The position numbers and the translations under genes were made by a program. Of a stretch of DNA of 51,620 nt, positions 7,857-20,215 are shown piece by piece. Source of the DNA: a virus (lineage: Duplodnaviria > Heunggongvirae > Uroviricota > Caudoviricetes); the IMG/VR virus record IMGVR_UViG_2541047950_000002, positions 1-51,620 of that record; one strand, given 5' to 3'. Position 1 is the stretch's first letter. Every line of letters begins with the position of its first letter. The notes under the pieces are model-generated. The model saw nothing but the letters and a program-made list of their open reading frames with translations. It ran no database searches and was not told the origin of the DNA.

Positions 7857-8400
7857 GCATCACTGGAAAGTGGAAAAACAGCCTGAGTGGTACGTGAAAG
7901 CGGTCAGAAAAACTATCGCGGCGTTGCCGGGTGGTTACGCTGAAGCAGCTGAGTGGCTGGATGTAACAGAGAACGCTTTATTCAATCGCCTTCGTGCCGA
8001 TGGCGATCAGATTTTCCCGCTGGGATGGGCAATGATTTTACAGCGCGCGGCTGGCACTCACTACATTGCGGATGCTGTCGCACAGTCTGCTGGTGGGGTG
8101 TTTGTATCGCTTCCTGACATTGAGGAAGTAGAGAACGCCGATATAAACCAGCGCCTGCTGGAAGTCATCGAACAGATCGGGAGTTACTCAAAGCAGATTC
8201 GTTCGGCAATCGAAGATGGGGTAGTGGAGCCACACGAGCAGACAGCAATGAATGATGAGTTGTATCTGTCAATTTCGAAGCTCCAGGAGCATGCGGCACT
8301 GGTCTACAAAATTTTCTGCGCTCCAGAAAAGAGTGACGCCCGCGAGTGTGCAGCTCCGGGCGTCGTGGCGTTTTGTGTCTGTGGAGAAACTAACGCATGA
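7849..8400 (+). CDS. CII-like regulatory protein (CP76-type)
   Basis: 183 aa with GTG start overlapping the cro end; position and recalled family similarity. Confidence 0.45.
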   Translation: MGKHHWKVEKQPEWYVKAVRKTIAALPGGYAEAAEWLDVTENALFNRLRADGDQIFPLGWAMILQRAAGTHYIADAVAQSAGGVFVSLPDIEEVENADINQRLLEVIEQIGSYSKQIRSAIEDGVVEPHEQTAMNDELYLSISKLQEHAALVYKIFCAPEKSDARECAAPGVVAFCVCGETNA

Positions 8401-9560
8401 ACAGTTTAACGGCAAATAACCGTTTGTCGCAACAGCTGGTGGTCAGTGTCGCTGCACACCTGTTGTTACGGCATGAATGCAGATTACCAAATCACCTGGC
8501 TGTAAGTAACCACAGAGAACTTTACCTGACTGTGGGGGGCGAGTTGTGCAGGAACTTAACCGCTGGTTTCGTGACGGAAGAGGACTTTATGTTCATGTTA
8601 TTCGTTGGGAGCCAGAAACACAGCGCGTTATCTATCTTCGCAAAGACTACCCGCATGAGTGCTTTAGTCCTTTGTGGAAATTCAGGCGTGATTTTGTTGA
8701 GTGTGAAGGACCACCAGCATATTGATTCTGCAATTCCGGGACGTTACACTGTACCGGCACCTTATAAAGCGGGTGCCGGGATTGGCGTCCTGAAATTGAT
8801 TACTGAGCATAACCGCGCTCATGCGGTTTTTTCGTGTCATGAGCATTGCTACGCCCAAATTATGGTGGGGCGTACAGGGCCGACTTCGGTCGGGCCGGGT
8901 TCGGTAGTCTCCGGTAACGCCAACCCTGTACGTCTCACCACCTCTGTGATTGGCGTCCCATGTGGTGAGTTTTCTAAAAAACTGACTACCGGGGCTGTCA
9001 CTATGACTACTCTCCCAACCCTCTCTCAACCTGAAATTGCCATCGTTGATGGTCAGGCTGTTACATCTTCTTTGGCTGTTGCTGACTTCTTCTCTAAACG
9101 TCATGACGATGTTCTGAAAAAGATCCGCATTTTGGATTGTTCTCCAGAGTTTTGTGCCCGCAATTTTGCGGAGACATCAATTTTGGTACGCCAGCCCAAC
9201 GGCGGTACTCGCAAACTTCCTTGCTATCAAATCACCCGCGACGGTTTTGCGTTTCTTGCCATGGGCTTCACTGGTAAACGTGCTGCCCGGTTCAAAGAGG
9301 CATACATCAACGCCTTTAACCTGATGGAGAAACAGCTTTCAAAGCCCGCTGTACCGAGCGACGTTGCACATAACGCCAGCGTTCTCTGTTCCTACATTTC
9401 ATCAATTCATCAGGTCTGGCTGCAGCAGCTTTATCCTATGTTGGCAAAAGCCGAATCTCCGCTGGCTGTTAGCTTATATGACTATATTAATGATGCTTCG
9501 GCGCTGGCCTGCCTCATAAATTTGTCGCTGAACCCTTCAGAGGCAAGGGGGCGCAAATGA
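8397..9560 (+). CDS. ORF with C-terminal Rha (pRha) domain; N-terminal 200 aa unassigned (alternative start 9003)
   Basis: ATG at 8397 overlaps the upstream stop (ATGA); residues from MTTLPTLSQ (nt 9003) onward resemble Rha regulatory proteins; a second frame is also open over 8507-8722. Confidence 0.45.
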   Translation: MNSLTANNRLSQQLVVSVAAHLLLRHECRLPNHLAVSNHRELYLTVGGELCRNLTAGFVTEEDFMFMLFVGSQKHSALSIFAKTTRMSALVLCGNSGVILLSVKDHQHIDSAIPGRYTVPAPYKAGAGIGVLKLITEHNRAHAVFSCHEHCYAQIMVGRTGPTSVGPGSVVSGNANPVRLTTSVIGVPCGEFSKKLTTGAVTMTTLPTLSQPEIAIVDGQAVTSSLAVADFFSKRHDDVLKKIRILDCSPEFCARNFAETSILVRQPNGGTRKLPCYQITRDGFAFLAMGFTGKRAARFKEAYINAFNLMEKQLSKPAVPSDVAHNASVLCSYISSIHQVWLQQLYPMLAKAESPLAVSLYDYINDASALACLINLSLNPSEARGRK

Positions 9561-14275: not shown

Positions 14276-14292
14276 TTTTGTGGAGAAAGTTG

Positions 14293-14673
14293 ATGCGTGA
14301 TATTCAGATGGTTCTTGAACGCTGGGGGGCATGGGCGGCAAGTGGTAACACCGGGGTGGACTATTCTCCGATCGCTGCCGGATTCAAAGGACTTTTACCA
14401 TCTGCCACTAAACCACGTCCGGCCTGCTGCGATGATGACGGACTTATCATTGAAAACTGTCTTGCTCGTCTGAAGCAGAAAAAACCTGAGGAGTATTCGC
14501 TTCTCATTGCTCATTATTTGTTGCGAATATCAAAAAGACAGATAGCCAGGACGAGAAAGAAAAGCGAAAAAGCAATACGAATTGAGATGCAGATAGCCGA
14601 AGGGTTTATTGACGGATGTTTGTCTGTGCTGGGGGTAAGACTGGAGATGGACGACTGGCTGCTAAAAAAGTAA
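14293..14673 (+). CDS. Q: late-gene antiterminator Q (phage 21/933W type)
   Basis: MRDIQMVLERWGAWAA N-terminus recalls Q of the 21/933W group; last gene of the coupled early operon, followed by a terminated short leader. Confidence 0.65.
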   Translation: MRDIQMVLERWGAWAASGNTGVDYSPIAAGFKGLLPSATKPRPACCDDDGLIIENCLARLKQKKPEEYSLLIAHYLLRISKRQIARTRKKSEKAIRIEMQIAEGFIDGCLSVLGVRLEMDDWLLKK

Positions 14674-16335: not shown

Positions 16336-16411
16336 GGCCCTTTAGCTCAGTGGTGAGAGCGAGCGACTCATAATCGCCAGGTCGCTGGTTCAAATCCAGC
16401 AAGGGCCACCA
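16336..16411 (+). tRNA. tRNA with anticodon CAT (Met or Ile2-type)
   Basis: Manual cloverleaf: 7-bp acceptor GGCCCTT/AAGGGCC, anticodon loop CTCATAA, T-loop TTCAAAT, encoded 3' CCA. Confidence 0.8.
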
Positions 16412-17349: not shown

Positions 17350-17596
17350 CCGGGTATCAGTCATGCCCCGAAAATTTTAAATGTCTCACAATTCAGACGG
17401 TTGACAGTTGTCTGTTTTGCGGGGAGTTTGTTAAAAGAAACAGGCATGGTGAATCCCCCTGAGCGGAGGGGCGACTGGTGCATTAGGTGTTATCTTTGAT
17501 ACCCAGGAAAGTAAACGCGCGGGTTTGGTGGCACCGGGCTGAACTCACCGGGAGGCACCCGGCATCATGCGCATGATGATACAGATACGCGGCTTT

Positions 17597-17622
17597 AGCC
17601 CCTCTCCGGAGGGGCTTTTATA
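17597..17622 (+). terminator. rho-independent terminator
   Basis: Perfect hairpin AGCCCCTC-TCCG-GAGGGGCT followed by TTTTATATGAATTTT. Confidence 0.6.
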
Positions 17623-17650
17623 TGAATTTTGTAAGATATGAGTAAACTAA

Positions 17651-17986
17651 TTATGGACACTGTTGTTTTAGTCCGTAAGGGCATATTTGCAGAATGCAAT
17701 GATTATTAAAGCATTCTTTCAATACGTTATCTGAATTTGCAGGACATTCCTGGCTGTTTTTGATTAAATCCCAGAATCTTTTATTGAATGGTACAACGTT
17801 GTAAATGGTTACAGGTAGCACTTTGTTATTAAGTACGATACCTGTGTGAGTCAACGTAAATATACTTTCAGGAGGTAAGAAAACATCCGATTGATACCAG
17901 ATTATTAATTTTATTTTACTCCATATGGCTGAAAAAGATATTCCGCATGATGGCTGGATAACTGTATCAATCACAATCCACTTCAT
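17651..17986 (-). CDS. orphan AT-rich protein, 111 aa, Cys-rich C-terminus; convergent to the late operon
   Basis: ATG at 17984-17986 with consensus AAGGAGG RBS on the - strand; very low GC; very AT-rich upstream region. Confidence 0.55.
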
Positions 17987-18247
17987 TTAGCCTCCTTATT
18001 TATGCTGTGCTGGTGATGTTCTGAAAAGTATAAATGATAATTTTGAATGTAAACCATAGAGCAGAATTATTTTTCTGATGTTGTTTATTGTTTATTTAAA
18101 TACAGGTTTTTTATATCCCGTCTTGTAGTTTATCCATGCATACCTGCTTTATGATGAGGTTTTCATTTAAGGTATGGTTTTGTGTTTTTTTTCTGTATTT
18201 CATGTCAGGTATTTTAAAGAATTGTTTTTAATATGGTGGAAAGAACC

Positions 18248-20215
18248 ATGGCATTTAAACACTACGATGTGGTCAGGGCGGCGTCGCCGTCAGACCTTGC
18301 GGAGCGACTGACTCAAAAACTGAAGGAGGGGTGGCAGCCATTTGGCAGCCCTGTCGCCATCACGCCTTATACCCTGATGCAGGCCATTGCGGCGGAAGGT
18401 GATGTCACCACACCTGTGGTGGTGAAGCCGTCGGATGGAGAAGGCACAGTAATCAGCGCCACCAGCGACCCGGAGTATTACTTTGTTGTGGTTCTGGCAG
18501 GGCAGTCAAATGGCATGTCGTATGGTGAAGGTCTTCCGCTGCCGGAGACATATGACCGTCCGGACCCGCGTATTAAGCAGCTGGCGCGCCGCAGTACGGT
18601 GACACCGGGCGGTGCCGCCTGTAAGTATAACGACATTATTCCGGCGGACCATTGTCTGCATGATGTGCAGGACATGAGCCGTCTTAACCATCCGAAAGCG
18701 GACCTGTCAAAGGGGCAGTACGGAACCGTGGGGCAGGGGCTGCATATCGCCAAAAAACTGCTGCCGTTTATACCGGCGAATGCGGGCATTCTGCTGGTTC
18801 CGTGCTGCCGTGGTGCTTCGGCATTCACAACGGGGGCAGACGGCACATACAGCGAATCAGCCGGTGCATCGGAAAATTCACTGCGCTGGGGTGTGGGTAA
18901 GCCGCTGTATCAGGATTTGGTGAGCCGGACTAAAGCCGCACTGGCGAAGAACCCGAAAAACCGTCTGCTTGCGGTGGTGTGGATGCAGGGAGAAGGTGAT
19001 GCGGCAGTGGGGACGCATGCGCAGCATCCGGGGCTGTTTAGTGCGATGGTGAATCAGTTCAGAACGGAGCTTGCCGGTCTGGCATCACAGAGCACAGGAG
19101 GCAGCGCATCAGCGGTACCGTGGATTTGCGGGGACACAACGTATTTCTGGAAGCAGCGTCATGCGGAAGGGTATGCATCAGTATACGGAGGGTATAAGGG
19201 GAAGGAGTCGCAGAACATTTTCTTTGTACCGTTAATGACGGATGAGAATGGTGCGAATGTGCAGACCAATAACCCGGCAGAAGACCCGGACCTGGAAACC
19301 GTCGGTTATTACGGTTCAAAGTGGCGTAATGACCAGAAGACCTGGACATCAGCAGACAGGGCCAGCCATTTCAGTTCATGGGCTCGCCGTGGGATTATTT
19401 CCGACCGTCTGGCAACGGCGATTCTGTTGCACGCCGGGAGAACCGCTGAATTCATTACCGGAAAACAGCCTGATACGGTGAAGCCCACCGGACCTTCCGG
19501 TGAAGGTCCGGAGAGAGAGGCGGAAGCCCCGGCCAGTAAGCGTACCCTGATGAGTCTGCTGGCATCCGGCGAAGACCTGGCATCACAGGGCTGGCGCTAT
19601 TATCACAAACCGGCGAGCGGAGACAGTATTGATAAAAACATCGCTGAGGCTGTGGTCAGTGATGAGGGTGCCACCGGTGGTAAGGCCCTGCAACTGAACA
19701 AACCGGAAAGCCACATCTGGTTTCTGGAGCATGATGCAGCCGGGCAGGGGGCAGAGTTACTGAAGAAAGGCGGACGTGTGAGCGTGCGGTTTAAGGTGCC
19801 GGGCTCACTGGTACAGAACCGGTTTGCCCTGGGTATTTACTGGCAGTTGTCGTCCCTGCCGGAGGGTGTGTCGCTGGCGGAGGAAGGCAACGACATGCTG
19901 ATGTCCTTCTTCCTGCAGACGGATGCGACGAACCTGAACGCGATGTACCACAAGACGCAGAATGCGAAGCTGGATACGTTCGGGGCATTTGATAACGAAT
20001 GGCACACACTGTCTTTTGAGTTTGCCGGAAACAACAGTATTCAGGTGACGCCGGTACTTGATGAGAAGCGGGGCACGCCATTCACGCTGGTGAAATCTCA
20101 GGCAACAGGGGTGGCGGATAAACTTCTGCTGACTGATATCACGAAGGTAGCAACGTATACGCTGCTGATTGACAGCGTGAAGGTGGAAGTGAACAACGCG
20201 GACGCCGCGGCATGA
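18248..20215 (+). CDS. NanS-p-like sialate O-acetylesterase (N-terminal DUF1737-like, C-terminal carbohydrate esterase)
   Basis: About 655 aa; N-terminus MAFKHYDVVRAASPSDLAERL recalls the Stx-phage NanS-p/YjhS family; same position relative to Q and S as in Stx phages. Confidence 0.65.
   Translation: MAFKHYDVVRAASPSDLAERLTQKLKEGWQPFGSPVAITPYTLMQAIAAEGDVTTPVVVKPSDGEGTVISATSDPEYYFVVVLAGQSNGMSYGEGLPLPETYDRPDPRIKQLARRSTVTPGGAACKYNDIIPADHCLHDVQDMSRLNHPKADLSKGQYGTVGQGLHIAKKLLPFIPANAGILLVPCCRGASAFTTGADGTYSESAGASENSLRWGVGKPLYQDLVSRTKAALAKNPKNRLLAVVWMQGEGDAAVGTHAQHPGLFSAMVNQFRTELAGLASQSTGGSASAVPWICGDTTYFWKQRHAEGYASVYGGYKGKESQNIFFVPLMTDENGANVQTNNPAEDPDLETVGYYGSKWRNDQKTWTSADRASHFSSWARRGIISDRLATAILLHAGRTAEFITGKQPDTVKPTGPSGEGPEREAEAPASKRTLMSLLASGEDLASQGWRYYHKPASGDSIDKNIAEAVVSDEGATGGKALQLNKPESHIWFLEHDAAGQGAELLKKGGRVSVRFKVPGSLVQNRFALGIYWQLSSLPEGVSLAEEGNDMLMSFFLQTDATNLNAMYHKTQNAKLDTFGAFDNEWHTLSFEFAGNNSIQVTPVLDEKRGTPFTLVKSQATGVADKLLLTDITKVATYTLLIDSVKVEVNNADAAA

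Follow-up and report, generated by a model that had tools for sequence, protein, structure and literature searches.

A convergent AT-rich gene in the late operon of a lambdoid prophage is very probably an allele of iraL, encoding an RssB anti-adaptor

What is the identity of a short, AT-rich gene that lies within the late operon of a lambdoid prophage and is read against it? The question is raised by the window analysed here, namely the whole stretch of 51,620 nt of the Caudoviricetes record IMGVR_UViG_2541047950_000002, in which a reading of the sequence alone (hereafter the sequence-only reading) had singled out a - strand open reading frame (ORF) as an orphan moron of no recognised family. 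The gene is, however, already known and annotated: its family, its target, a co-crystal of K-12 IraM with RssB, and the prophage location of its closest homologue have all been published. We conclude that the ORF is very probably an allele of iraL, an RssB anti-adaptor gene carried by the prophage for lysogenic conversion. Its family, predicted fold, conserved contact residues, prophage slot and conserved promoter are shown in the following by comparison of sequences and structures. The surroundings of the gene comprise these features:

14278-14673, + strand: Q-like antiterminator gene
17415-17627, + strand: STnc100 small RNA (Rfam RF02076, 139.4 bits against a gathering score of 47)
17625-18247, no strand: AT-rich iraL island, a cargo cassette with a GC content of 0.31 that is absent from related phages
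18248-20215, + strand: nanS-p-like esterase gene (Pfam domains DUF1737, SASA and DUF6645), whose RefSeq start at 18248 marks the right boundary of the island

On the + strand, the antiterminator is followed by a DNA methylase, three tRNAs, TerB and DUF3927, and past iraL by the esterase, holin and endolysin; every late-operon neighbour is thus on the + strand and iraL alone on the other, which bears out the initial description of the gene as running against late transcription. The terminator proposed at 17597-17622 is likewise real, consisting of a hairpin with a T run at 17597-17616 (+), although it had not been recognised as the 3' end of STnc100, which faces that of iraL in convergent orientation; the adjoining gene, taken to be NanS-p-like, is confirmed as such by its Pfam domains. 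In a terminator scan, no U-tract terminator was found 3' of the iraL stop on the - strand, where the STnc100 hairpin is represented by its complement alone; for want of such a tract, transcription of iraL may continue into STnc100 in antisense. In three phages, JLK-2012, BP-4795 (Stx1) and PPyecE_EH1910, the STnc100-like region and the esterase are retained but 17625-18247 is missing, with similarity resuming at 18248-18255. Their comparison therefore defines an island of 0.6 kb, which coincides with the GC trough. As regards the marks of a moron, we found a promoter (homologous to one with a mapped start), foreign composition and a presence/absence polymorphism, but no - strand U-tract terminator. 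The view that the gene is an independently expressed moron is supported in particular by CFT073 iraL, whose transcription start has been mapped and whose promoter is conserved in the window.

Two further observations were made on RNA genes of this prophage. The first tRNA, at 16336-16411 (+), was called tRNA-Met (CAT) by ARAGORN, while RefSeq names the identical gene tRNA-Ile; a CAT anticodon carrying a lysidine modification would fit the latter call. Furthermore, Rfam matches to isrK (59 bits) and to C4 antisense RNA (82 bits) lie side by side at 8757-8945 (+) in the prophage early region, inside or adjoining the ORF 8397-9560.

Within and upstream of the island gene, the following elements are distinguished:

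17651-17986, - strand: iraL-type ORF, ATG start, 111 codons and stop
17654-17752, - strand: codons 79-111, C-terminal tail with the pattern C81-x10-C92-x4-C97-x4-C102, delimited from a 35-member alignment
17753-17986, - strand: codons 1-78, PmrD-like beta-barrel and helix, predicted RssB-binding domain (AF2, Foldseek)
17987-18019, - strand: putative 33-nt 5' UTR with its start at 18019, by homology to 5'RACE in CFT073
17991-17997, - strand: Shine-Dalgarno sequence AAGGAGG, read directly, 4 nt ahead of the ATG
18027-18032, - strand: -10 hexamer TATACT, 7 nt upstream of the start, identical in the window, CFT073 and AR_0013
18048-18053, - strand: -35-like hexamer TTTACA (our own reading of the -35 element), identical in the same three sequences
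18082-18098, + strand: weak PhoP-box-like repeat TGTTTAttgttTATTTA, 63-79 nt upstream of the putative start

The ORF, its length of 111 aa and its Cys-rich C-terminus are all present as the sequence-only reading gave them, and so is the perfect AAGGAGG motif in front of it, the - strand sequence ahead of the start being TAAGGAGGCTAA-ATG. AAGGAGG occurs 6 times in the window against 5.2 expected, which is not above chance, so that only its position is meaningful. The very low GC content described for this region is equally borne out, amounting to 0.311 over 17625-18232, 0.342 in the iraL coding sequence and 0.28 in the AT-rich upstream region (17987-18232), against 0.518 for the whole window. 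In composition-matched first-order Markov simulations of the island, an ORF of at least 111 aa arose in 38 of 5000 runs. The dN/dS between the window gene and its relatives, which amounts to 0.18-0.26, shows that the coding sequence is under purifying selection.

The gene is not an orphan. NCBIfam model NF007393, "anti-adapter protein IraM", matched the protein with 161.1 bits against a cut-off of 121, spanning residues 1-109 and profile positions 1-112 of 114, and the IraM chain of PDB 8TWD, an IraM-RssB complex, was matched over residues 1-78 at an E value of 6.6e-33. RefSeq holds the exact window protein as WP_021574136.1, under the name IraM. A Foldseek search with a predicted structure, which had been put forward as a way of finding remote homologues, returned the same family: the AF2 model, comprising strands within residues 2-66 and a helix at 69-77, was closest to 8TWD_A (TM 0.87, rmsd 1.5 A), followed by the PmrD structures 4HN7 (TM 0.74) and 2RQX (TM 0.72), with which it shares 14-18% identity in the structural alignment. 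The resemblance of IraM to the PmrD fold is itself a published relationship and agrees with that found here (PMC10844676). Confidence in the model rose with the depth of the alignment, from a mean pLDDT of 66.6 with 15 homologues to 83.9 with 35, and in the latter case the block means reached 87-96 over codons 1-78. Among the 15 residues with which IraM contacts RssB in 8TWD (clusters I-III and Pro66), 11 are identical in the window protein; three of the other four are conservative exchanges (T13S, L75I and I64V), and the fourth, H63N, introduces the residue that most family members have at this position. As judged from profile matches and the predicted structure, the window ORF is a member of the IraM/IraL/RssC family of RssB anti-adaptors.

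Other collections are less telling. With E values up to 10, a Pfam hmmscan yielded no match for the window ORF, for IraL of the CFT073 type or for K-12 IraM, and since the scan is empty for K-12 IraM as well, this negative is uninformative. Precomputed labels of PF11183 (PmrD) are found on relatives, at odds with the empty scan. In PHROGs, the family corresponds to phrog_4407 (230 bits, full length), filed under "unknown function".

Which member of the family is it? The window protein shares 100 of 111 residues with IraL of CFT073 (c1429, WP_000871291.1), likewise of 111 aa, and 67 of 107 with K-12 IraM. At the nucleotide level, its coding sequence matches CFT073 iraL at 314 of 336 positions (93.5%), whereas similarity to K-12 iraM amounts to 70% over 17667-17988 and is confined to the coding sequence, the upstream regions being unrelated; regulation is therefore expected to follow iraL rather than Mg2+/PhoP control. 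All iraL copies in a 2014 survey had at least 95% nucleotide identity to the CFT073 iraL coding region (Hryckowian et al. 2014, PMC4045071), a value below which the window allele falls, while still being far closer to iraL than to iraM. The marks of the iraM subtype, near-identity to K-12 iraM together with a PhoP-dependent upstream region, were not found. None of the 11 substitutions that separate the window protein from CFT073 IraL affects an RssB-contact residue; five lie in the tail between the cysteines, in addition to S110C. Furthermore, the slot is the same in both genomes. In CFT073, an antiterminator, tRNAs for Ile, Arg and Arg, and DUF3927 precede iraL (-), which is followed by a DUF1737 remnant and a holin; hence the setting in a lambdoid prophage, between tRNA/DUF3927 and the DUF1737 esterase on the opposite strand, is that of the CFT073 locus (L007) in order and in orientation.

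The control region points in the same direction. The transcription start of CFT073 iraL has been mapped by 5'RACE (PMC4045071), and the published sequence, exact in CFT073, aligns to the window with 27 identities in 33 positions (+1 to +33), while 93 of 100 positions are identical from -100 to -1. Surveyed iraL copies were at least 96% identical across the promoter/start region (PMC4045071); by this sequence comparison, the window promoter is slightly more diverged than those copies and nevertheless retains the iraL promoter/start region. Its TTTACA and TATACT hexamers are separated by a 15-nt spacer, and the promoter was missed by a consensus promoter scan because this spacer falls below 16 nt. 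The two - strand matches which that scan did report are no more than chance, and we discarded them. CFT073 and the common iraL alleles have AAGGAAA where the window has AAGGAGG, and the window allele, with its consensus Shine-Dalgarno sequence, may be translated more strongly.

In CFT073, the function of IraL has been characterised by experiment. [quoted passage not shown] A fragment that joins positions -100 to +33 to the coding sequence suffices for CFT073 iraL to be expressed and to complement, and under this native promoter, iraL raises RpoS in K-12 (PMC4045071). CFT073 iraL responds to a shift from 23 to 37 degrees C with a 1.6 log2 rise (PMC12890032), and IraL levels rise without Fur (PMC7157518).

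Both RssB binding and RpoS stabilisation are on record for CFT073 IraL and K-12 IraM only (PMC4045071, PMC10844676), and our model for the window gene is built on these experiments. In the lysogen, iraL would be transcribed leftwards from its own sigma-70 promoter, starting near 18019, into an mRNA with a 33-nt leader and the consensus Shine-Dalgarno sequence. By analogy with the two characterised proteins, the N-terminal beta-barrel domain would bind the adaptor RssB, which would thereby be prevented from passing sigma-S (RpoS) on to the ClpXP protease; RpoS would then accumulate during growth, with a rise of the general stress regulon. Upon prophage induction, Q-modified polymerase would be expected to pass the STnc100 terminator and to cross iraL antisense. 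Such late transcription should lower iraL expression, for which reason we suppose a role of the gene in the lysogen and not in lytic growth.

Against the assignment to iraL stand the 11 residue differences, the nucleotide identity of 93.5%, the 15-nt spacer and the lack of a - strand U-tract terminator, and three other readings have to be weighed against it. Induction of K-12 iraM by Mg2+ starvation runs via PhoP, as Bougdour and colleagues reportedly found in 2008. The window gene could in the same manner be IraM proper in function, silent during normal growth and induced by PhoP/PhoQ when Mg2+ is scarce, given that it belongs to the same family and that the PhoP-box-like repeat, with one mismatch to KGTTTA-N5-KGTTTA, is conserved in CFT073. 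Yet the upstream region is that of iraL and is unrelated to that of K-12 iraM, and iraL is expressed in log phase in LB (PMC4045071). The box itself is a weak statistic in AT-rich DNA: the scan gave 2 hits in the window where 0.58 would be expected, a number reached in 10 of 100 shuffles, and no hit in the known PhoP-dependent region of K-12 iraM. We consequently left it out of the mechanism, and we regard control of the iraM kind as improbable here.

Still less probable is a PmrD-like connector that would act on another response regulator, PmrA for instance, or on a phage-related target instead of on RpoS turnover. The similarity of the predicted fold to 4HN7 and 2RQX, as well as the PF11183 labels on relatives, would agree with such a role; however, identity to PmrD is as low as stated above, the residues by which IraM contacts RssB are retained, binding to RssB is established for the 90% identical IraL, and PmrD is devoid of the four-Cys tail that defines the family. 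As for the initial notion of a new orphan moron, or else of an ORF in AT-rich DNA that exists by chance or is decaying, it could appeal to the empty Pfam hmmscan and to the filing of phrog_4407 under unknown function, of which the former carries no information. It is already refuted by the NCBIfam, PDB and Foldseek matches together with the CFT073 locus, and a degraded gene fragment, also considered at the outset, does not accord with a frame intact in 1446 genomes and a dN/dS of ~0.2; we give this explanation hardly any credence. The iraL allele thus remains our preferred reading.

Apart from the barrel domain, the family is distinguished by its C-terminal tail. When 35 sequences with identities as low as 20% are aligned, only M1, W72, C81, C97 and C102 are invariant, with P12, W30, C92 and P103 conserved in at least 90%. 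All 35 aligned members have four cysteines in the tail, corresponding to C81, C92, C97 and C102 of the window protein, whose fifth cysteine, at 110, is not conserved. The motif, which is our own definition drawn from the family alignment, reads C-P-G-N-x7-8-C-x5-C-x4-C-P-Y-G. Going by this alignment, the four tail cysteines form the best conserved part of the IraM/IraL family as a whole, across several enterobacterial genera, with Escherichia, Salmonella, Citrobacter, Enterobacter and Kosakonia among those that share them. In the only crystal structure, residues 79-107 had been removed as proteolytically unstable and were called less conserved and flexible (PMC10844676). A profile of the tail alone found no match in the PDB (E up to 10) or in Pfam, save for a sub-threshold beta-defensin hit of one sequence. 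AF2 assigned the tail a pLDDT below 50 with 15 close homologues and block means of 47-69 with 35 sequences, values too low for a metal site to be read from the model. We tentatively entertain the possibility that the tail is a metal-binding or redox-sensitive module and not a disordered appendage; the conservation of its cysteines would fit a simple structural zinc knuckle or a disulfide staple equally well. Should the tail bind zinc or form disulfides reversibly, the stability or the activity of the anti-adaptor could be gated by it, and signals of metal or oxidative status would then reach the control of RpoS post-translationally. Of all our findings, only that on the invariant four-Cys tail goes beyond published knowledge of an otherwise well-studied regulator family.

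How widespread is the gene? Copies of the 641-bp island with at least 90% identity are present in 1446 of 5426 complete E. coli genomes, in every case with an intact frame annotated as "anti-adapter protein IraM". The window allele is rare among them, only 20 of the 1446 genomes having it at 95% identity or more, and perfect matches to the 641-bp island come from three STEC strains; to the common allele the island is 92.7% identical. A megablast of the island against sequenced phages returned only 4 records. A profile search of 1.84 billion representatives added ~45-50 full-length, single-domain relatives of similar size. Ten of these were checked and, where named, belong to Salmonella salamae, Citrobacter, Enterobacter, Kosakonia, Intestinirhabdus and Dryocola, most being labelled IraM in the cluster annotations.

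More distant members of the family, with 77%, 69% and 62% identity, also lie between Q and the esterase gene and opposite to the late genes. The 77% identical homologue is found in two prophages of GCA_039832115.1 (3206-3541 in L008 and 3173-3508 in L009), with stxB (87 aa) as its immediate neighbour on one side and the nanS-p-like esterase on the other; the 69% identical one belongs to E. albertii, and the 62% identical one adjoins an LpxR gene. The stx2 genes beside the 77% identical homologue are ~89% identical to those of stx2a/2c phages, and the arrangement of stx with an iraL-like gene seen in L008 is absent from the sequenced phages of the INPHARED collection.

For the host, the consequence is that a lysogen of this phage probably possesses a prophage-encoded RpoS booster, which is relevant to the acid and stress tolerance of STEC-type strains. 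With phrog_4407 labelled as unknown function and no Pfam match at hand, annotation centred on phages will keep calling the gene an orphan.

Placed among known systems, the window gene is closest to iraL of CFT073, with which it has the AT-rich composition of the island in common. The window allele is harboured by an intact prophage of STEC-type strains; iraL had been reported as under-represented in that pathotype (PMC4045071). K-12 IraM is of the same family and fold and has the same four-Cys tail, but its gene is induced by Mg2+ starvation (PMC10844676), and it binds both RssB domains, whereas IraL contacts only the N-terminal one in two-hybrid assays; the IraM co-crystal may accordingly not describe the IraL-RssB interface exactly. 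The chromosomal setting of K-12 iraM (b1160) is different too, beside the e14 attachment-site remnant, and suggests that this gene also resides in a prophage remnant. In this region of K-12 (L003 8681-10108), iraM lies just outside the annotated end of e14, beyond the icdC pseudogene, and adjoins ycgX (DUF1398), a kind of gene frequently found in lambdoid prophages. PmrD, which protects phospho-PmrA, is also small, also binds the receiver domain of a response regulator and shares the fold, but has another partner and no Cys-rich C-terminal tail, at 14-18% identity. Finally, the morons located between Q and the lysis genes of lambdoid prophages, such as stx1/stx2 and TerB/DUF3927 (tciA/tciB in phage records), are likewise cargo of foreign composition. 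The stx genes are co-oriented with late transcription and largely driven by it, whereas iraL has its own promoter and points against the late operon.
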